NCBI GenBank assembly: GCA_964428315.1
Contig: CAYRXT010000008.1
Coordinates: 6,140 to 70,139, forward strand
Direction of reading: 5' to 3'
Source of the DNA: an uncultured Planctomycetales bacterium
GTDB lineage: Bacteria > Omnitrophota > Gorgyraeia > Zapsychrales > CAYRXT01
DNA: 64,000 bases
A model generated the notes under the pieces. It did not search any database. It was not told where the DNA came from and saw only the letters and a list, made by a program, of their open reading frames with translations. The position numbers and the translations under genes are program-made. Below are positions 1,240-64,000 of the stretch, in pieces. Numbering within the stretch: the stretch's first letter is position 1; every line of letters starts with the position of its first letter.

Positions 1240-1396
1240 GACTAAGAATATATCCGTTGGCCCCTTCACGATTCCGGCGGGCTTCCCTGAACCATTGCCG
1301 GTCAGGCAGACACAGCCGAAAAAGCCACCTCTCCCCTTTTTACGATCCAGGGATTTGGCGTCCACAGCCTTTCCGGAGGGCGCGCGGTCCTGTTCT

Positions 1397-1732
1397 CTAA
1401 CAATGATACCCTCTGATGAGCCGTTGCTTTTGTTCCTTGGTCAGACGCTTGATCCGGCGTTCTTCCTTCACGGCGTAAAGGTAATACCGGCACCGCTTGG
1501 CATAGACCAGCCGCAAAGGCCCCCTGCCTTTAAGGTATTTTGAACCCCGTCCGTTTGAGTGGTCCTTAATGCGTTTTTCAAGGTTGCTGGTGTAACCGGT
1601 GTACAGCGCGCCGTTACGGCACAGGATTATGTAAACGAAATAGATGCCATGTCGTTTTATCTTTTTTCTCTTCTTCCCGGAGCTCATGATTGATAAGTCT
1701 TTACAGGCTAAAATACGGCCGTTTTTCTTCAC
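1397..1732 (-). CDS. GIY-YIG nuclease-domain protein (UPF0213-like)
   Basis: HGIYFVYIILCRNGALYTGYTSNLEKRIKDH is a classic GIY-YIG motif. The true start is probably the internal Met at about 1687. Confidence 0.75.
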   Translation of the reverse strand: MKKNGRILACKDLSIMSSGKKRKKIKRHGIYFVYIILCRNGALYTGYTSNLEKRIKDHSNGRGSKYLKGRGPLRLVYAKRCRYYLYAVKEERRIKRLTKEQKQRLIRGYHC

Positions 1733-55616: not shown

Positions 55617-55922
55617 TTTAAGAAAACGATTTCTCATATCTAAATAATTATTATAACTTATTGTTGGTATAAAGGTTACATAATTGCACAGAGCTAATTT
55701 ATTGCTGAGTTGAATAGTCATGTATTTCTGTATGTTTAACATAATTAACAATAATGTCTATGACATGGTAGGACAATCCCAGAAATTATGCGTTAAGTTG
55801 CATTTATGTCATGTCTAACAATTTGAACCATAAGTAAGTCCTTTTTAAACAAATAGTTAGAAGGAATTTTGATAATCATTTGAAATTTGTAATATTTGGA
55901 TCCGCATGGTATACTTTTTGCT

Positions 55923-57284
55923 ATGGACCAGCGTCTATCAAAATTGCAGGTTCAAAAACAGATATTATCTCCTGTTATGCAGAGGTCGATTACCATCCTG
56001 ACCCTGCCGATCACGGAACTCAACCAGGCCATTGAAACAGAGCTTCAGGATAATCCTTTTCTCGAGTCCGAAGAAGACATGAACCAGATGGTTGAATTGC
56101 CGCCAGAGGGCGCCCCAACGTCTTTGGAATTGATGTATCAGATGGCCGAGGATGAGCTTCCTGATAAGTCTACGGGTAAGAAGGAAGAGGTCTTTTTCCG
56201 GGTTGCCCAGGCCATATCCTTAAGCGATTATCTTCTTCAGCAGCTTCGTATTGAGCTAAGCGATCCGGAAGATATCAGGATCGGTGAGGTCATTATAGGG
56301 AATATCAACGATAACGGTTATCTTACGGTTTCTCTTGATGACATCGCGGGGCAATGCGGATTAACCGAAACCGGCAGAATCCTGCGCATTCTTTCACGCA
56401 TTCAAACATTTGATCCGCCCGGGGTGGGGGCGAGAGATATCAAGGAGTGCCTTGCTATTCAGCTGGACAACCTGGAGTGGGACGACAAGCCTTTGGCCTT
56501 ACAGATCATTCAAGATCACTGGGATGATCTGGCGAAGAAGAGATTTGACCTGATTGCCCGACGTTTGAGCATTTCCACGGAACGGACGAAACACATATTT
56601 AACTTTATCTCAGGGCTCGAGCCGAAACCGGCGCGCAATTTTTTCCCGATCAACACGCAAATCTATGTCAAACCGGATCTGTTTGTCGTCAGGCAAGGTG
56701 ACGGCCTTGAAGTCAAAATAAATTCCGAGGGGGTCCCCCTTTTGAAGATCAGCCCGCTATACAGGGCAATGCTCAGAAAGGAGAATTTAACCGACGAGGA
56801 AAGAGCTTTCTTGAAAAACAAAATGGAAAGCGCCGTGCAGTTTATACGCAGCATCAGACAAAGAGAAACCACTTTGCGCAATATCGCCGAGGATATTCTC
56901 CGTCATCAACAGCGATTTTTTGAGATGGGCCCTGTCGGGCTGTGCCCCCTGACTTTAAAGGACGTCGCCGGACGCATCGACCGCGATGAGTCAACGGTCT
57001 CGCGCACTATCCGCAACAAATATATGGACACGCCGATGGGGATCTTTCCCATGAAGTTCTTTTTTTCCAATGCCGTGGCCATGGAAAATAACGGCAAGAC
57101 AACTTCACGGGGCATCAAGGAAGAACTTAAAGAGCTTATTAACGGCGAAGATAAAACGAAACCTCTTTCTGACCAGGCCATTGTTGAATATTTCAGGAAA
57201 AAAGGGATGATATTGGCCAGGAGGACTGTCGCCAAATATCGTCAGAACTGCCGTATTTCTCCCTCCCATCTCCGTAAGGAATAA
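55923..57284 (+). CDS. rpoN: RNA polymerase sigma-54 factor
   Basis: N-terminal LQQxL-type region I (MDQRLSKLQVQKQILSPVMQRSITIL), C-terminal HTH and RpoN box ARRTVAKYR. Confidence 0.9.
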   Translation: MDQRLSKLQVQKQILSPVMQRSITILTLPITELNQAIETELQDNPFLESEEDMNQMVELPPEGAPTSLELMYQMAEDELPDKSTGKKEEVFFRVAQAISLSDYLLQQLRIELSDPEDIRIGEVIIGNINDNGYLTVSLDDIAGQCGLTETGRILRILSRIQTFDPPGVGARDIKECLAIQLDNLEWDDKPLALQIIQDHWDDLAKKRFDLIARRLSISTERTKHIFNFISGLEPKPARNFFPINTQIYVKPDLFVVRQGDGLEVKINSEGVPLLKISPLYRAMLRKENLTDEERAFLKNKMESAVQFIRSIRQRETTLRNIAEDILRHQQRFFEMGPVGLCPLTLKDVAGRIDRDESTVSRTIRNKYMDTPMGIFPMKFFFSNAVAMENNGKTTSRGIKEELKELINGEDKTKPLSDQAIVEYFRKKGMILARRTVAKYRQNCRISPSHLRKE

Positions 57285-57393: not shown

Positions 57394-60300
57394 TTATGGC
57401 CGTGTCTGGTATGAATAATCCTTTGTCCACCAGGCACCATCGATCAAAATCCACAGCCTTACGTAGATTTTCGTGTTATTAAGCGGGATGCCGGTGACTG
57501 TCTGCGATGTCGCCATGTGAACATTTTTGCTGTAGATATCGCCCCAGGGATCGACTTTGACTGAACTGAAGGTCGTCCCCACGCTGAGCCAGTAGGCGGA
57601 GGCCCGCGGGTCGGAATCCCAGGAGAAGTTCACAGTCGCGGAGGTGATCGCGGCATTGTCCCCCAGGTGGACGCTCTGATCTTGATCAACTTCTGTCATG
57701 CAGGAGGCGTCACAACCGTCGTTGTTGTTCGTGTTGCCGTCATCACATTGCTCCGAACCGTTTACTGTGCCGTCTCCGCAATATTCGGCGGATACGCATG
57801 ATGCAAAGGCGGAGCATTGATCGTCACAGCTTTGGGTTCCGGCATAACCGTCCGTAGTGGTGCACGACTGGACGTTAGAATCACAGACTTCTTTTCCGTT
57901 GGTCATACCGTCCCCGCAATATTCGGTTGCGATGCACTCACTGTATCCGGAGCACTGGTCATTACATGACCGCGAACCGGCGTAGCCGTCTTCCGTTGTG
58001 CAGATTTCGCTATCGTTGTCACATATCTCCGAGCCTGTGACCATTCCGTCACCGCACACGTCCGTCTGACCGGAGGCTGTCGTCTGATAAGAATAATCCT
58101 TGGTCCACCAGGCACCGTCAATCAAAGTCCACAGCCTTACGTAGATTTTCGTGTTATTAAGCGGGATGCCGGTCACAGTCTGCGATGTCGCCATGTGAAC
58201 ATTTTGGCTGTAGATATCGCCCCATGGATCAACTTTGACTGAACTGAAGGTCGTCCCCACGCTGAGCCAATAGGCGGAGGCTCGAGGATCCGAGTCCCAA
58301 CTGAAATGAACGGTGCTGACACTGATGGTGGCGTCTCTCCCGAGATGCACAGCCTGGGATTCAAGACGGCAGCCGGCACTACACCCGTCTCCCCCGCTGT
58401 TATTGCCGTCATCGCATTGTTCGTTTCCATTGACGGTACCATCGCCACAGCTTTCAGTGGTCGAACACGTCCCAAAACCCCCACAATGGGCGTCACATAA
58501 CTGTGTGCCCGCATAGCCGTCGGTCGTTGTGCAGCTTTGCGCATTCGAATCGCATACTTCGCTGCCATTCACCATGCCGTCACCGCAATATTCGCTTGTC
58601 GTGCATGCGCCAAAAGCTGAGCAATTATCGGAACACGTCTGCGTACCGGAATAACCGTCTGCAGTAACACAGACCCGGGAAGCTGTATCGCAGATTTCGT
58701 TTCCGTTTGTTGTTCCATCTCCGCAATACTCGGATGTCGAGCATGAGCCGTACCCCGAACACTGGGCGTTGCACGTCTCTGTCCCGGCGTATCCTTCAGC
58801 GGTTGTGCATGACTGAGAGTCGGCATCGCAGGCCTCATCCCCGTTCGTTGTCCCGTCGCCGCAGGATTCGGTTGTCACGCATTCCGTGTTATACCCGCTG
58901 CAATCCGATTTGCACGCCTGCGTGCCGCTGTAGCCCTCGGCTGTCGTACAGGACTGCCCCTCTCCATCGCAGGTTTCATTGCCGTTGAGGATACCGTCTC
59001 CGCATGATTCTTCGGCAACGCAGGAACCGAAGCCGGTGCACTGCGCGTTACATGTTTCTGTACCCACATAACCGTCGTCAGCGATGCAGGACCGGCTGTT
59101 ACCGTCACAGACCTCTTCCCCTTCGATCTTCGCGTCTCCGCAATAGGTGAGCGATTGGTTTTCACTTCCCAAAACGCCAATTTCCGCGACGCATGTCCAT
59201 GGGTTGCCGTTAACCTCCGACAGCGCAACAAATTTAAAATACCGTCCGGTGTGCACTGAATTGAAGAGAACCTCTTTCTCTGAACTGGAATTGACGAAAG
59301 AACCGCTTGCCGCCAGCGAATCCCAAGCAATTCCGTCTTCGCTGATGTAAAACTCGTAATCTTTGACATTTCCATTTGATCCGCCATCCTGACGCGGGAG
59401 GTAACGGAATCCGCTCACATCATATGTCGCCCCCAAATCCACAATGATATAATGAGGATGTTCGGGAGATGTGTAGTACCACTCTGTATGCCATTCCGAT
59501 GTCGTGTCATCATCAAAGGCGTTTACTGCGGCATCATTATCGCTGTTCATTTCCTGGCTGTCGAAGTCGATCAGAGTCCAATTGGCCTTTGAGATGGCAA
59601 CAATCAGAGTCGAAACGGAAATCGAATGATCCGCCATATTGCTTAAAACACCATCAGAAACCGAAAAACGAAACGTGTAATCTCCATCTTGTCCACTCAC
59701 TGGCGACCAGGTCAGCGTCCCTGTTCCATCGCCGTTATCGACAAATACCGCCCCCAGAGTCGTCACCTCATCCAAAACATCGCCGTTGACGACGTGTGCC
59801 GTAAGCGTAAGCGGGTCCCCGTCCGAATCGCTGGCGCTGACATTAACGCTCGCGGCGCCTCCGGTTTCAATCGACGCATCACCGGAAACACTGATGACAG
59901 GCGCGTGATTGATATCCCCGACCGCGATGCTCGTTGTGTCATCATCACTCAAACTCCCGTCGCTGACGGTCAGGGTGACGGTGTACTCTCCAGTCTGGGC
60001 GTAGGTGTGCACGGGGCTTTCTTCGCTGCTTGTCTGGCCGTCGCCGAAGTCCCATTCATAGGAATAGCCGGCATCCGGCAGGAAGGATTGGCTGCCGTCA
60101 AAATGGACAGTCAAATGATCCGTGCTGGCGACCTGAATAACCGCTACCGGCAGGGCCTGATCGGTCGAACTGACCCGTATCTGATGGGTTCCAGTACCCC
60201 AGAATTCATGCCGGGCAAAACCCTGATCGCTAACGTTCAGGGCGGATTGGGTGCCGTCAATGCTGATAGTCCATGCCTTTGCCGGATCCAGGTCAGCGAT

Positions 60301-62433
60301 GTAGACCTCGGTATAGGCGTCAGAATTGACATTGATGACAAAGCCGGTTTTGAAAAGGCGCAGGGAGTTTGTCTTGGAGAACCTTTCCGGATCGTGCGCG
60401 GCACGGTAATTTTCAAAAGGCGTGGGCGAAGGCGGGGTGTTTTCCGTCCCGTTGAATATGGCCAGCTTATACGTGTCCACGCCCGCCATTAATACCCCGA
60501 CCGCGTCCTCGTCCGCCACGGATAGCAGTTTGGAAAAGTCCGCCTGGCTGCCGACATGAACGACGTTGGCCAGTGTGAGAAAACCTGTCTTTTGTGTCGG
60601 GATGATCCTCAACTGATATTTAAGTTCCCCGTCCCTCATAACCCCGGTCAGGTAAAGAGGATGCCCGGCGTTGTAGAGACTCTGTTCGTCATAGATCTGC
60701 AATGAGTAATCGTCTACCAGGGTTCTCAGGGTGACTTCTTCCCCGTTATCGGCGTGCCATTTTATGGTGTCGCCGCTGATGTTGGGATTGGCGTCAGGTA
60801 TATGGAGGATCCACTGATGATAGGCGTTGGCCGCGTCGATGCGCTCTTCGATGTAATCCGGTATGCGTTCGTAGCGCCAGGTCGGCATGGTGTTCGTATC
60901 CTTGGGATCGCTGACGTTAAGGCGGTCAAACACCACGATAGTGTCCGAGCCGTCCGTATTATGCCAGTACATTGTACTGCGGTTCCATTCATGGACGAAC
61001 TCCAGCGGAGGATCGTAGTAGTTGCTGTGAACCAGCTGTCCGCCGGTGGTCCCTGAATGATAAAGGAAGGTGTCGCCCGCTTCAAAGGCGCCTTCCCCGA
61101 AGGCCTCGTTCGCGCCGGCGACGCCGCCTGAAATAAGCATGCCGTTCATGTACGGCCCTTCGACCTTGCCGCCGTAATACCCTTTGGGATTCGAGACCGC
61201 CCATCCGCCGTTGCGGTAGAGATTGAAGTTTGTCAGCGATTCCCTGTCATGATCCACGTAGGTGTAGTTGAACATCGTCGATGCGTAAAAACTGTCGTTG
61301 GAGCCCCATCCGCTGTGATGGTACGCGATCCCGTGACCCGAGGCGTGATGTGATGTGATTCCGGCGGGAGCCTGACGCGAGGAGTAGGGATCCACGAAGT
61401 ACGGCCAGCTGGGACCGGTGTTCGTCGTCCCGTTGGCCTCGTATACGACGTCGAACAAATACAGAGCCTCCGGATCCCTGGATAACGCGCTCACCATCGC
61501 CATAAGGGGAACGCGGTTCCAGTAACGCAAATCGTGGGGGTTCTGCTCGTCGCCCCACTGAAAGGAATCTCTGAAGTTCGGGGTCATCTGCTGAACCATC
61601 GCTTCGGCAAAATCATCATATAATGCCGTAACGTCCGGAAATTTATCTTCTCCGTAATAGGCGTTGATTGCCGAGGCGCCCATAAGAAGATATTGCAGAG
61701 TCCCCAGGTTGTAATTCGAGCTCTCCAGCCATTCGCCGCCTACGGATATGCCGGTCGTGTACCGCTTGATGGTATTGCGCCATGTGGAGGTGTTTGCGCC
61801 GGTGGCGTCCAGCCCTCCCACAGGTTTGATGAAATCATTTCCGGCGAAATTGAGGATCTCGCTGGCCCTGGTGGGATCTTCGTCCATAAGGGCAACGGCG
61901 TAACAGGCCACGCCGAAATAATGTCCCGTCATTTCGTCCGAGTCCCACGTCCGCGTCCCGTGGCCGGTGGAAAAGACCAAATCAACCCAATGGTCGAGTA
62001 TATCCCGGTAGTTCGCGCGATCCGTCGATGAAAGCGCGTCAGAAATCCAGTCGTAAAGAATCGCCAAATTCGTGAAGTTATGGCGGGTGGAATTGCGGGA
62101 TGGTTCGGCGCAGCCCGACGGGCGGTAAGAATCCCCGCACCACCAGTTCACCCTCTGCCACGCCGAGTAGGCATATGAGGTGTCTCCGGTGATCAAGTAA
62201 ACCAGCCCGTCACGCAGTCCGTCGTCGCCGTAGAGATTGGACGTATCGGCCTGCGATTTCAGACGCTGCCAGAGCGGATGGTTTTCATTGTACATCTGGG
62301 TCCAGAGCTGCTGCTGGTCAGCGGACCACCCCACCTTGTTCTGGGCCCAGGCGTCGCATAGAAAAACGCCCGATAGCGCAAAAAATACCGTTGTCAAGAG
62401 AACAAACAGCTTTTGAAAATTTGATTTACTCAT
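57394..62433 (-). CDS. giant secreted multidomain protein: heparinase II/III-like lyase-like N-terminus, PKD/Ig-like modules, F5/8 discoidin domain, about 12 Myxococcales-type Cys-rich repeats, duplicated about 90-aa C-terminal domain
   Basis: Signal peptide MSKSNFQKLFVLLTTVFFALSGVFLCDAWAQN with RBS GGGGAGG. Repeats CGDG-NG-E-CD-C-GY-GT-C. Two near-identical C-terminal domains (SAYWLSVGTTFSSVKVDPWGDIY...). Confidence 0.85.
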   Translation of the reverse strand: MSKSNFQKLFVLLTTVFFALSGVFLCDAWAQNKVGWSADQQQLWTQMYNENHPLWQRLKSQADTSNLYGDDGLRDGLVYLITGDTSYAYSAWQRVNWWCGDSYRPSGCAEPSRNSTRHNFTNLAILYDWISDALSSTDRANYRDILDHWVDLVFSTGHGTRTWDSDEMTGHYFGVACYAVALMDEDPTRASEILNFAGNDFIKPVGGLDATGANTSTWRNTIKRYTTGISVGGEWLESSNYNLGTLQYLLMGASAINAYYGEDKFPDVTALYDDFAEAMVQQMTPNFRDSFQWGDEQNPHDLRYWNRVPLMAMVSALSRDPEALYLFDVVYEANGTTNTGPSWPYFVDPYSSRQAPAGITSHHASGHGIAYHHSGWGSNDSFYASTMFNYTYVDHDRESLTNFNLYRNGGWAVSNPKGYYGGKVEGPYMNGMLISGGVAGANEAFGEGAFEAGDTFLYHSGTTGGQLVHSNYYDPPLEFVHEWNRSTMYWHNTDGSDTIVVFDRLNVSDPKDTNTMPTWRYERIPDYIEERIDAANAYHQWILHIPDANPNISGDTIKWHADNGEEVTLRTLVDDYSLQIYDEQSLYNAGHPLYLTGVMRDGELKYQLRIIPTQKTGFLTLANVVHVGSQADFSKLLSVADEDAVGVLMAGVDTYKLAIFNGTENTPPSPTPFENYRAAHDPERFSKTNSLRLFKTGFVINVNSDAYTEVYIADLDPAKAWTISIDGTQSALNVSDQGFARHEFWGTGTHQIRVSSTDQALPVAVIQVASTDHLTVHFDGSQSFLPDAGYSYEWDFGDGQTSSEESPVHTYAQTGEYTVTLTVSDGSLSDDDTTSIAVGDINHAPVISVSGDASIETGGAASVNVSASDSDGDPLTLTAHVVNGDVLDEVTTLGAVFVDNGDGTGTLTWSPVSGQDGDYTFRFSVSDGVLSNMADHSISVSTLIVAISKANWTLIDFDSQEMNSDNDAAVNAFDDDTTSEWHTEWYYTSPEHPHYIIVDLGATYDVSGFRYLPRQDGGSNGNVKDYEFYISEDGIAWDSLAASGSFVNSSSEKEVLFNSVHTGRYFKFVALSEVNGNPWTCVAEIGVLGSENQSLTYCGDAKIEGEEVCDGNSRSCIADDGYVGTETCNAQCTGFGSCVAEESCGDGILNGNETCDGEGQSCTTAEGYSGTQACKSDCSGYNTECVTTESCGDGTTNGDEACDADSQSCTTAEGYAGTETCNAQCSGYGSCSTSEYCGDGTTNGNEICDTASRVCVTADGYSGTQTCSDNCSAFGACTTSEYCGDGMVNGSEVCDSNAQSCTTTDGYAGTQLCDAHCGGFGTCSTTESCGDGTVNGNEQCDDGNNSGGDGCSAGCRLESQAVHLGRDATISVSTVHFSWDSDPRASAYWLSVGTTFSSVKVDPWGDIYSQNVHMATSQTVTGIPLNNTKIYVRLWTLIDGAWWTKDYSYQTTASGQTDVCGDGMVTGSEICDNDSEICTTEDGYAGSRSCNDQCSGYSECIATEYCGDGMTNGKEVCDSNVQSCTTTDGYAGTQSCDDQCSAFASCVSAEYCGDGTVNGSEQCDDGNTNNNDGCDASCMTEVDQDQSVHLGDNAAITSATVNFSWDSDPRASAYWLSVGTTFSSVKVDPWGDIYSKNVHMATSQTVTGIPLNNTKIYVRLWILIDGAWWTKDYSYQTRP

Positions 62434-62461
62434 TGTACGACCTCCCCGGGTGCCCCCCGAT

Positions 62462-62495
62462 TAAAAAAACCCAGGTCCAAAGAGTCGGCCTGGGT
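62462..62495 (-). terminator. intrinsic terminator T2 (CCCAGG-13 nt loop-CCUGGG plus U7), 30 nt upstream of the giant-gene RBS
   Basis: Minus-strand CCCAGGCCGACUCUUUGGACCUGGGUUUUUUU, followed by AAUCGGGGGGCACCCGGGGAGGUCGUACA-AUG. Confidence 0.7.
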
Positions 62496-62539
62496 GTTGC
62501 GGTTTTCCGGGGTTGGTGCTGTTTGTTTCTCGCTGAGAA

Positions 62540-62622
62540 TCGCGTTTTCGGCAGCCAGGCTGTCCCTCTCAAGGACCCTGTGACTTTGCGTCCCCGCCTT
62601 ACGACGGGTTTGCCTTTATCGT
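62540..62622 (-). ncRNA. c-di-GMP-I (GEMM) riboswitch-like aptamer, copy A (gene-proximal)
   Basis: Minus-strand UAAAGGCAAACCCGUCGUAAGGCGGGGACGCAAAGU... then a second hairpin and CUGCCGAA. Parallels V. cholerae Vc2 (ACAGGGCAAACC-AUUC-GAAA-GAGU-GGGACGCAAAGCC...). Confidence 0.7.
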
Positions 62623-62656
62623 TACTTTTCTGAAAGAGCGGTGCGGCCGCGATGGC

Positions 62657-62690
62657 CAAAAAAAAACCTATTACGCAAAGTAATAGGTTC
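62657..62690 (-). terminator. intrinsic terminator T1 (CCUAUUAC-UUUGC-GUAAUAGG plus U9) between the two aptamers
   Basis: Perfect 8-bp stem followed by nine U on the minus strand. Confidence 0.75.
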
Positions 62691-62700
62691 GGTTTTGGTC

Positions 62701-62792
62701 GATCCTTCGGCAGTCAGGCTGCCCTTGAACCATGCGTTCAGGGCCCTATAACTTTGCGTCCCCGCCTTACGGCGGGTTTGCCTTTGTCGGTG
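62701..62792 (-). ncRNA. c-di-GMP-I (GEMM) riboswitch-like aptamer, copy B (promoter-proximal)
   Basis: Minus-strand CACCGACAAAGGCAAACCCGCCGUAAGGCGGGGACGCAAAGU-UAUAGGGCCCUGAACGCAUGGUUCAAGGGC-AGCCUGACUGCCGAAGG. GNRA (GUAA) tetraloop on P1. The variable second hairpin keeps its base-pairing relative to copy A. Confidence 0.7.
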
Positions 62793-62794
62793 AT

Positions 62795-62826
62795 ATTTTA
62801 AAGAACTTTTTTCCAGCCAATGTCAA
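62795..62826 (-). promoter_or_regulatory. candidate sigma-70 promoter for the riboswitch leader (TTGACA -35; TTTAAA/TAAAAT -10)
   Basis: Minus-strand TTGACAttggctggaaaaaagttcTTTAAAATA. Spacer is 18-20 nt, so only moderate quality. Confidence 0.3.
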
Positions 62827-62990
62827 GTATAGAACACAAATCCGGAAAAAGCAAATCGTGACGCGAAAAAATGATGATTTTTTCACGAGAAAAAGCGTCA
62901 ATCTTTAAGTGTCTATATCCTTTTGCAGGACAGCATGTTGCATATTTTGCGGTCTTTGGGAAAGCGCTTTCTCATTTTTAAAGTCCATTG

Positions 62991-63392
62991 TCAAAATTGC
63001 TTTTCGTAACATTCTTTTTTTAATTCGGATTTTTCCCGCTGTATCCAGTAAGAGTTTTTTTCCGGCTCAAGCGGCTGGTCTAGCAGATCCTTGCGGAGCA
63101 AACGAAGAACCAATCCAATGATGCCGAACATAAGATAAAATACCGCGCCCAAGATAAAACCGGTGACAACCGCTCCTATAAAGTGAGCCACCTTCATCCA
63201 CCGGTCATACACCAGCTTGACATGATCCAGCGAGAAGACCGTCAACAACAGGAAAAAACCGGACATGGTTATCAGCGCGAATGGCACAAATCCCGCTCCG
63301 TGCTTTATCCAAAGCCTGGAACCGATAAACCCCAGGATCAGGAATAGGCCATAACCGAAAACCTTCAAGTTTCTCATCTCTTTTGGATTCAT
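62991..63392 (-). CDS. SxtJ-family-like small membrane protein
   Basis: 133 aa, three TM helices. Immediately downstream of a carbamoyltransferase gene, the typical context of SxtJ-like proteins. Family call from memory. Confidence 0.5.
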   Translation of the reverse strand: MNPKEMRNLKVFGYGLFLILGFIGSRLWIKHGAGFVPFALITMSGFFLLLTVFSLDHVKLVYDRWMKVAHFIGAVVTGFILGAVFYLMFGIIGLVLRLLRKDLLDQPLEPEKNSYWIQREKSELKKECYEKQF

Positions 63393-63394
63393 CG

Positions 63395-63997
63395 TCAGTC
63401 CAGGATCAAGGACATATCCTCTTTTTTGTATTTGTCTTTGTCAGGCTGTTTTTCCTTCTCAAAAATCAGGTTCTCAATCACCAGGTAATCCATATTCGTG
63501 CACATAAAGCAGCGGTAGGCATCGGCCGGCGTACACACGATGGGTTCTCCGCGTATGTTGAAAGACGTGTTGATCACCACCGGGCAACCCGTCAGCTTGT
63601 AAAATTCATTAAGGACCTGGTAATACAGCGGATTGGTCTTTGCGGAAACGGTCTGTATCCGCGCCGAATAATCGACATGCGTGACCGCGGGAATGACGGA
63701 ACGACGGACCTTCAACTTTTCCAGTCCAGCCGCATTCATGTTCCGGGAGCCCTCGTCAATCTTGTCTTCCTTGACATTCGCGACCAGGAGCATGTACGGA
63801 CTGGGGCAATCCAGTTCAAAATATTCCTGACAGTAGTCTTCGAGCACGCTCGGCGCGAACGGCCGGAACGATTCCCGGAATTTGATCTTCAGGTTCAATA
63901 CAGACTGCATTTTTTCGCTCCGGGCGTCCGCGATGATACTGCGGCTGCCCAGGGCGCGCGGGCCGAATTCCATGCGTCCCTGAAAAAGGCCGACCAC
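63395..63997 (-). CDS. NodU/CmcH-family carbamoyltransferase, C-terminal part (5' end beyond window)
   Basis: EFGPRALGSRSI, FRPFAPSVL, IPAVTHVDYSARIQTV, NTSFNIRGEPIV motifs of the carbamoyltransferase C-terminal domain. The ORF runs off the window edge. Confidence 0.8.
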   Translation of the reverse strand: MVGLFQGRMEFGPRALGSRSIIADARSEKMQSVLNLKIKFRESFRPFAPSVLEDYCQEYFELDCPSPYMLLVANVKEDKIDEGSRNMNAAGLEKLKVRRSVIPAVTHVDYSARIQTVSAKTNPLYYQVLNEFYKLTGCPVVINTSFNIRGEPIVCTPADAYRCFMCTNMDYLVIENLIFEKEKQPDKDKYKKEDMSLILD

Positions 63998-64000
63998 ATT

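Follow-up and report, generated by a model that had tools for sequence, protein, structure and literature searches.

Riboswitches built on the class-I (GEMM-I) aptamer for cyclic di-guanosine monophosphate (c-di-GMP) commonly occur in tandem, and 347 doublets and 12 triplets of them have been catalogued (Sherlock et al., 2022; PMC9481103). The Bc3-Bc4-Bc5 triple tandem of Bacillus thuringiensis was shown by experiment to give more stringent and more digital control (PMC4759541). In Clostridioides difficile, seven out of seven functional class-I switches are of the OFF type, and one of these represses the secreted adhesin-releasing protease ZmpI/PPEP-1 (PMC6366702). Here we describe an arrangement of this kind in a 64-kb stretch of contig CAYRXT010000008.1 (assembly GCA_964428315.1; the whole stretch is called the window below), in which the leader of a gene encoding a 1679-residue secreted protein carries two GEMM-I aptamers, each followed by an intrinsic terminator. 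We read this leader as two class-I c-di-GMP riboswitches in series, each with a terminator of its own and the first of them an OFF switch, that gate a gene for a polysaccharide lyase-like protein; to this reading as a whole we assign a probability of about 0.6.

The leader shares with described tandem c-di-GMP-I riboswitches the presence of several full class-I aptamers in a single 5' leader, the possession of their own intrinsic terminators and a secreted- or surface-protein gene downstream, and tighter, more digital control would be expected of it as well. In these respects it is an ordinary case of a common tandem arrangement and leaves knowledge of the riboswitch mechanism unchanged. Bc3-5 are ON switches in which the 5' arm of the terminator overlaps C92, P1 and P3, whereas the terminators in the window are free-standing and the antiterminator of the first unit is of the OFF type; in contrast to these and similar systems, too, the host is apparently an uncultured Omnitrophota-like lineage and the target a lyase-fold protein. 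What is particular to the present case is an antiterminator derived from the binding pocket of the first aptamer, a lyase-fold target of an unannotated family beside an extracellular polysaccharide (EPS) locus, and a poorly sampled host lineage.

A cmscan search with Rfam 15 at gathering thresholds over both strands of the window returned only two above-threshold matches, both on the minus strand, both to clan CL00126 and both spanning model positions 1-80 of 80. With them, the leader (about 370-430 nucleotides) comprises the following elements, in the order in which they would be transcribed (E, expectation value):

62791-62705, minus strand: aptamer 1, class-I c-di-GMP (GEMM-I); RF03167, 69.6 bits, E = 2.1e-14, full model
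62690-62658, minus strand: terminator T1, from the terminator scan; 11-bp stem (GAACCUAUUAC / GUAAUAGGUUU) at 62690-62664 and U9 at 62666-62658
62623-62546, minus strand: aptamer 2, class-I c-di-GMP (GEMM-I); RF03167, 69.4 bits, E = 2.4e-14, full model
62495-62462, minus strand: terminator T2, ACCCAGGCC...GGACCUGGGU, from minimum-energy folds; 7 bp, a bulged A and 4 bp at 62495-62469, and U7 at 62468-62462
62447-62431, minus strand: Shine-Dalgarno sequence GGGGAGG at 62447-62441 and ATG start codon at 62433-62431, from the sequence and the open reading frame list

Both aptamers are oriented as the downstream gene. A preliminary description of this DNA, made by eye, had placed two GEMM aptamers at about 62701-62792 and 62540-62622, and the cmscan positions agree with these to within a few bases; the motifs that it quoted (AAAGGCAAACC, GGGACGCAAAGU, CUGCCGAA and the CCCGCC/CCCGUC-GUAA-GGCGGG hairpin) were every one found in the sequence. 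It had expected two significant matches in a search with RF01051 and the GEMM-Ib model. Two matches were obtained, but the top model for both was RF03167; at each aptamer one additional CL00126 model exceeded its own gathering score, presumably RF01051 (gathering scores, 59 bits for RF03167 and 35 bits for RF01051). The tandem of aptamers is confirmed, far beyond chance, and that two genuine GEMM-I aptamers are present we regard as practically certain. That the matches should have arisen by chance, or represent plus-strand small RNAs without relation to the downstream gene, is so improbable as to need little discussion. Nothing speaks for it: the plus-strand match to C0465 that overlaps the region fell below threshold (22.8 bits, E = 0.088; the gathering score is 40), and a permissive Rfam rescan of 62400-62900 returned, beyond the two aptamers, sub-threshold noise alone on both strands. 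Against it stand two independent full-length matches with E of about 2e-14, strong and confined to the coding strand of the adjacent gene, a terminator after each aptamer, and the location of both downstream of a promoter-like site and upstream of the Shine-Dalgarno sequence. Of the refuting outcomes named in the preliminary description, neither an absence of Rfam matches nor plus-strand elements emerged from the searches.

Identity between the two units is about 85% over the aptamer, which suggests a duplication followed by divergence. Each aptamer carries a GUAA tetraloop on its first hairpin, and its two hairpins are present in every minimum-energy fold. Compensatory changes in the second hairpin, as put forward in the preliminary description, do exist but are thin: one pair is changed on both sides (C-G to U-A), two further pair changes between copy 1 and copy 2 are one-sided (U-A to U-G and U-G to C-G), and the distal part of the hairpin is unequal in length between the copies. 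The two terminators, with their U9 and U7 tracts, were likewise present as described, but with longer stems (11 bp, and 7 + 4 bp) than the 8 bp and 6 bp that had been given. Their folding energies are -11.8 kcal/mol (T1) and -16.0 kcal/mol (T2), and T2 was absent from the simple terminator scan because its stem-and-loop form lies outside the rules of the scan. T1 and T2 begin 15 and 50 nucleotides past P1, respectively, without overlapping it. Within 62658-62700, T1 is situated between an upstream A-tract, CCAAAACC, and its downstream U-tract; the A-tract gives it a terminator score on the plus strand as well as on the minus strand. No gene of the plus strand has an obvious end at this place.

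The identity of the ligand can be approached through Vc2 of Vibrio cholerae, the GEMM-I riboswitch (RF01051) whose conserved residues are G20 in J1-2, C22, A23, A25, G32, A35, G42, C44 and G45 in P2, A47, A48 and A49 in J2-3, G83 in P3 and C92 in J3-1; G45 pairs with C22 and C44 with G83, and G14-C93 closes P1 (PMC3764141). The spacing from G20 to A47 is 27 nucleotides in both Vc1 and Vc2 (PMC4744006). Vc2 numbering was transferred from the cmscan alignment, in which model position 10 corresponds to G20, 34 to C44, 37 to A47 and 38-39 to A48-A49, and it transfers directly because the first hairpin of the window aptamers is 16 nucleotides long, as in Vc2. The architecture is the same, and the pocket residues G20, C22, A23, A25, C44, G45, A47-A49, G83 and C92 are kept. 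In aptamer 1 the pocket is formed by G20 (62782), C44 (62758), A47-A49 (62755-62753), G83 (62719) and C92 (62710), and in aptamer 2 by G20 (62614), C44 (62590), A47 (62587), G83 (62560) and C92 (62551). The C44-G83 bridge occurs in both copies, as C62758 with a bulged G62719 and as C62590 with G62560, and in both the alignment shows C92 as an unpaired C directly 5' of the P1 3' strand. Unlike Vc2, the window aptamers have a GUAA rather than a GAAA tetraloop, a GC-rich first hairpin, a second hairpin that varies in length between the copies, and a short, interrupted P1.

On these grounds the expected ligand of both aptamers is very probably c-di-GMP, and both are predicted to bind it. The preliminary description had favoured c-di-GMP over 3',3'-cyclic GMP-AMP (cGAMP) from the G aligned to Vc2 G20 in both copies; the cmscan alignment gives the same residue at 62782 and 62614, and the preference stands, with G20 present and the variant G47 absent. 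Variants of the cGAMP type are set apart by A in place of G at position 20 (PMC9481103), and neither copy has the A20 of a 3',3'-cGAMP (GEMM-Ib) riboswitch.

The top score of RF03167, the model of the c-di-GMP-I-GGC variant, on both copies (69 bits against a gathering score of 59) could be taken to mean that the aptamers belong to that or another specificity variant and bind a ligand other than c-di-GMP. RF03167 does outscore the other Rfam models on each copy, and the first hairpin and overall sequence of the window aptamers are very similar to those of the variant. From the RF03167 consensus and the naming scheme (the sister name is 'UAU'), 'GGC' appears to name positions 20, 47 and 92. At the column of position 47, however, the consensus reads GACGC-G-AA whereas both window copies read GACGC-A-AA(G), the match line of cmscan being blank there; the mismatch thus falls exactly at the distinguishing position of the model (A instead of G at 37, Vc2 position 47). 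The ligand triad of both copies is the canonical G20/A47/C92 rather than G/G/C, with neither the A at position 20 typical of cGAMP variants nor a departure from C at 92, and the aptamers are not members of the GGC class.

As a control on the label, 185,579 species genomes were searched with the 31-nucleotide core GGCAAACCCGYCGTAAGGCGGGGACGCAAAG, a pattern that requires A47. The core was found in 114 stretches, from Planctomycetota, Actinomycetota, Chloroflexota, Steroidobacteraceae, Omnitrophota and others, and its use as a lineage marker was rejected, many phyla carrying it. Examples of loci in this set are:

L020 1475-1552: locus of the A47-pattern set
L038 4828-4905: locus of the A47-pattern set
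L010 1742-1819: locus of the A47-pattern set

When 18 loci or genomes of many phyla were scanned, RF03167 was the best model for 23 of 25 GEMM-I aptamers and RF01051 for the other two, and the pattern-recovered aptamers carry GACGC-A-AAG. Because 23 of 25 aptamers obtained with an A47 pattern also pass it, the RF03167 score test does not discriminate, and the label, judged from these sequences, reflects the GC-rich first hairpin held in common with the variant seed and not the binding site. Together with the residues at positions 20, 47 and 92, this leaves a ligand other than c-di-GMP very unlikely. For annotation, the leader is best recorded as two class-I c-di-GMP riboswitches with terminators, and the label 'GGC variant' should not be carried over; best-hit annotation over-calls the variant class, and most of the sampled GC-rich GEMM-I aptamers of other phyla are affected (23 of 25).

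The expression platform of unit 1 was analysed by folding growing prefixes of the transcript, by duplex energies and by 2000 shuffles of the downstream region. The helix search and the prefix folds identify two strands of a candidate antiterminator:

62759-62745, minus strand: antiterminator 5' strand ACGCAAAGUUAUAGG, made up of the aptamer-1 core (C44-A49) and the 5' strand of the second hairpin
62687-62673, minus strand: antiterminator 3' strand CCUAUUACUUUGCGU, made up of the T1 5' arm and loop together with the two bases that open the 3' arm

Fourteen of the 15 positions form Watson-Crick pairs, a number reached by none of the 2000 shuffles (null mean 6.3, maximum 13); the duplex has an energy of -19.7 kcal/mol. 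In the prefix folds, the minimum-energy structure becomes the antiterminator as soon as the 5' arm and loop of T1 have been transcribed. After completion of the T1 stem, the energies are -51.0 kcal/mol for the antiterminator fold and -50.2 kcal/mol for aptamer plus terminator, within 0.8 kcal/mol of each other, and the terminator state gains a clear advantage only if pairing between the U-tract and the upstream A-tract is permitted. Such pairing is impossible as long as the U-tract is part of the transcription hybrid.

The antiterminator takes up C44, G45, C46 and A47-A49 and therefore cannot coexist with a ligand-bound pocket; as it excludes pocket and terminator together, the topology of unit 1 is that of an OFF switch. 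In the mechanism that we propose, 62759-62745 would pair with the 5' half of T1 (62687-62673) in the absence of ligand, and RNA polymerase would read through the resulting antiterminator. Binding of c-di-GMP would lock the core residues within the aptamer, T1 would form and transcription would stop. We consider it likely that unit 1 is an OFF switch, a direction on which the preliminary description was silent, the alternative pairing being an in silico result from which we infer the direction in vivo. c-di-GMP likewise promotes premature termination in the class-I OFF riboswitches of C. difficile, such as Cd1 upstream of flgB and the switch of zmpI/PPEP-1; those switches, unlike the pair in the window, are single and belong to Firmicutes.

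The antiterminator of unit 1 was also considered as a generic design of related aptamers. This was rejected, as CTTTGCG occurs within 260 nucleotides downstream of only 1 of 117 related aptamers (a U6 run is found downstream of 14). In the ON-type relatives L043, L063, L068 and L072, the P1 3' strand itself is the terminator 5' arm. With an antiterminator derived from its pocket and nearly isoenergetic with the terminator state, unit 1 might be used in reporters as a small module repressed by c-di-GMP.

The gene behind the leader, and the domain that suggests its function, are:

62433-57394, minus strand: regulated gene, 1679 amino acids, with a signal peptide; open reading frame list, Pfam and NCBIfam
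62433-60184, minus strand: N-terminal domain of about 750 amino acids with a predicted polysaccharide-lyase fold; AlphaFold2 and Foldseek

Matches to Pfam and NCBIfam are confined to the C-terminal two-fifths of the protein, and its N-terminal 750 amino acids had no match in Pfam, NCBIfam, PHROGs or the sequences of the PDB. The N-terminal family comprises at least 51 metagenomic proteins, which are at most 47% identical to the window protein. An AlphaFold2 model built with 44 family sequences (predicted local distance difference test 94.1, predicted template-modelling score 0.91) consists of a helical (alpha/alpha) toroid followed by a beta-sandwich. In Foldseek comparisons with the PDB the model matched heparinase II (2fut; E = 1.3e-26, template-modelling (TM) score 0.64-0.65) and also alginate lyases of polysaccharide lyase (PL) families 15 and 17, exo-heparinase, heparinase III, PL33 and chondroitin lyases; 34 PDB chains of lyases or epimerases had E below 1e-5. 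The domain thus resembles heparinase II (PL21) and the PL15/PL17 alginate lyases (2fut, 3a0o, 7bjt) in having an alpha/alpha toroid and a beta-sandwich (E = 1e-26 to 1e-17, TM score 0.55-0.65), but differs from them in that sequence identity is only 12-15% and the domain is known by its predicted fold. Y241, N242, H395 and R117 are invariant in the 44 homologues. The model therefore adds a polysaccharide-lyase fold at the N terminus to what had been described as a giant extracellular protein; by predicted fold the domain is a putative polysaccharide lyase.

Several homologues occur in phage-like contigs, among them L006 (with Gp80 and Mu-like prohead genes) and L007, and one homologue is named 'Oligo alginate lyase [Siphoviridae]'. 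Location on phage contigs is as expected for capsule or EPS depolymerases, and the N-terminal family may be an unannotated depolymerase family common to bacteria and phages. A genome-contig scan with the N-terminal 750 amino acids recovered no relative, and exact-protein look-ups of the 1679-residue protein returned no record, nor did those of the RpoN protein encoded in the window. Beyond the N-terminal domain the protein continues with PKD, Big_9/cadherin-like and F5/8-type-C (discoidin) domains; Cys-rich acidic repeats come next, together with a C-terminal module that is present in two copies. The repeats are 46 amino acids long (TIGR02232 / DUF4215) and are encoded by six 138-nucleotide units at 57758-59082; the module, of 269 nucleotides, lies at 57404-57672 and 58082-58350, is 85% identical between its copies and encodes a domain of about 90 amino acids that closes each of two repeat blocks.

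Downstream of the regulated gene, on the same strand, are genes for a Wza-like exporter, a Wzz/GNVR chain-length protein, a ParA-like kinase, rmlABCD, glycosyltransferases and an ABC exporter, along with an ATPase resembling the XrtA/PEP-CTERM-associated ATPase. The preliminary description had spoken of an EPS/exosortase locus; the export and synthesis genes of an EPS locus are there, but an exosortase gene was not found, and all matches to PEP-CTERM-system families are below curated cut-offs. The lyase fold and the adjoining locus for polysaccharide synthesis and export make c-di-GMP repression of a matrix-degrading enzyme plausible. At high c-di-GMP, the matrix-building state, production of the secreted lyase-like protein beside the polysaccharide locus would be blocked, and at low c-di-GMP it would be permitted. 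Two serial termination checkpoints would multiply the probabilities of read-through, which would reduce leakage and make the response to c-di-GMP steeper. The repression of zmpI in C. difficile, which concerns a secreted enzyme that undoes attachment, parallels the repression of a matrix lyase proposed here, except that the target is a protease there and a putative polysaccharide lyase in the window.

Taken further, an OFF pair acting at the RNA level would gate an EPS-degrading lyase beside the EPS locus of the same organism, a deep-branching Omnitrophota-like host, and would hard-wire a dispersal circuit in which no matrix is digested at high c-di-GMP; the lyase would be of an unannotated family that phages use as well, probably as a depolymerase. 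We put this fuller scenario forward tentatively, as it strings together several steps, and hold it to be somewhat less probable than not. If true, the logic would be one of dispersal, with low c-di-GMP leading to production of the matrix lyase, and an uncharacterised family of lyase-fold secreted proteins, lacking a model in Pfam, NCBIfam and PHROGs and with relatives on phage contigs, would be placed in the c-di-GMP regulon. A literature search found no paper mentioning both a c-di-GMP riboswitch and a polysaccharide lyase.

The opposite direction of control would have both units act as ON switches, with c-di-GMP preventing formation of the terminators and the secreted protein being made at high c-di-GMP as a matrix component or adhesin. 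Many terminator-coupled GEMM-I riboswitches are indeed ON switches, including Bc3-5 upstream of surface-protein genes (PMC4759541), Bc2 and examples from Chloroflexota; the PKD, Big_9/cadherin-like and F5/8-type-C domains of the protein are adhesin-like; and in the global minimum-energy fold both terminators are present alongside the aptamer hairpins, such that thermodynamics alone sets no direction. However, no nucleotide of either terminator belongs to the P1 3' strand or to another element stabilised by ligand, and there is therefore no evident way for ligand binding to block them. The sole statistically significant alternative helix, the 14/15 pairing of unit 1, destroys the pocket and the terminator together, and the N-terminal domain is modelled as a lyase fold rather than an adhesin fold. 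We consider control in the ON direction improbable on this evidence, and return to the reading of two riboswitches in series with an OFF switch in unit 1.

Several results weigh against this reading, most of them concerning unit 2. The helix search between aptamer 2 and the downstream/T2 region gave at best 8 pairs (p = 0.28, shuffle test), and the homologue in unit 2 of the unit-1 antiterminator is reduced to 5 + 4 interrupted pairs with an energy of -9.5 kcal/mol. The best fold free of T2 lies 5 kcal/mol above the aptamer-plus-terminator fold, and T2 could be constitutive or under other control. The folding calculations for both units are thermodynamic and take in neither tertiary structure nor ligand energy nor co-transcriptional kinetics. 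Among large secreted proteins that carry PKD, cadherin-like and discoidin domains, adhesins switched ON by c-di-GMP are frequent. The loci of the six nearest homologues (39-47% identity) have zero Rfam matches upstream or at the locus, and a metagenome scan for the tandem-aptamer DNA pattern with 120-150-nucleotide spacing returned 0 matches; as these searches yielded no close relatives of the leader, support from covariation cannot be had for the expression platforms. In comparison with those six loci, the link between riboswitch and gene is specific to this genome.

The claim of the preliminary description that each aptamer controls its own terminator, forming a two-stage gate, is accordingly borne out in silico for unit 1 and not for unit 2. 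Unit 2 has the same layout, with an aptamer, a spacer and a free-standing terminator that does not overlap P1, and would probably work in the same direction with a degenerate antiterminator. Helix searches between aptamer 2 and the linker, between the linker and T2, and between aptamer 2 and T2 plus the Shine-Dalgarno sequence recovered no significant antiterminator or anti-antiterminator. The best T2-free fold is a strand swap in which the arms of the aptamer second hairpin (P3) pair with those of T2. T2 keeps a CUUUG loop motif complementary to the CAAAG of the aptamer core, and its arms mimic the arms of the aptamer second hairpin. The linker between aptamer and terminator is predicted to be unstructured:

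62545-62496, minus strand: unit-2 linker, predicted unstructured; base counts A22 C18 G9 U3 over 52 nucleotides counted

Being A/C-rich and G-poor, the linker could be a site of Rho utilisation or loading. The aptamer-2 3' strand CCUGGCUGCC (62559-62550) can pair at 9 of 10 positions with GGCACCCGGG (62454-62445), a segment overlapping the first Gs of the Shine-Dalgarno sequence, and this pairing could be an additional, translational layer of control.

A single GEMM-I aptamer whose 5' half is almost identical to that of aptamer 2 occurs within 1360-1560 (minus strand) of L020, a locus of a Candidatus Omnitrophota metagenome-assembled genome (JADFYE010000009.1). It lies upstream of a gene for a signal-peptide protein and has its own terminator upstream and a long terminator downstream, the arms of which mimic the second hairpin. 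The hairpin mimicry in aptamer 2/T2 and in L020 may point to strand exchange, a mechanism to which simple helix statistics would be blind.

These features bear on the alternative that only unit 1 works as a transcriptional riboswitch, the link between aptamer 2 and T2 having decayed; T2 would then be a constitutive attenuator, or aptamer 2 would act through Rho loading on the linker or through access to the ribosome-binding site. The insignificant pairing between aptamer 2 and T2, the 5 kcal/mol in favour of the terminator, the composition of the linker and the possible 9/10 pairing of CCUGGCUGCC with GGCACCCGGG at the Shine-Dalgarno sequence are all in its favour. On the other hand, aptamer 2 retains every conserved pocket residue and scores like aptamer 1, which argues for selection on binding, and the CUUUG loop motif and hairpin mimicry are kept in T2, the mimicry recurring in L020. 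We consider this alternative unlikely, if the most serious of those discussed here. Unit 2 is probably functional because its binding site is intact, and a series in which both units are OFF switches seems to us a possibility of slightly less than even odds.

Transcription of the leader may begin at the promoter-like site noted above:

62901-62874, minus strand: candidate sigma-70-type promoter, TTGACG - 16-nucleotide spacer - AATCAT, weak; consensus scan and direct reading

A perfect -35 element, TTGACA, at 62826-62821 was rejected as a confident promoter, there being no -10 box at 16-18 nucleotides.

Convergent to the riboswitch-controlled gene is rpoN (sigma-54; 55896-57284, plus strand). 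Among 5.8 billion database proteins none is more than 50% identical to its product, the best named matches being to metagenome-assembled genomes of Candidatus Omnitrophica, and the window probably derives from a poorly sampled deep lineage. Directly upstream of the leader, the minus strand at 62991-64000 encodes a carbamoyltransferase (C-terminal domain, E = 1e-71) together with a small membrane protein that is SxtJ-like. The pairing of these two is known from saxitoxin-type clusters; in the polysaccharide locus of the window, the pair may serve in O-carbamoylation of a sugar.

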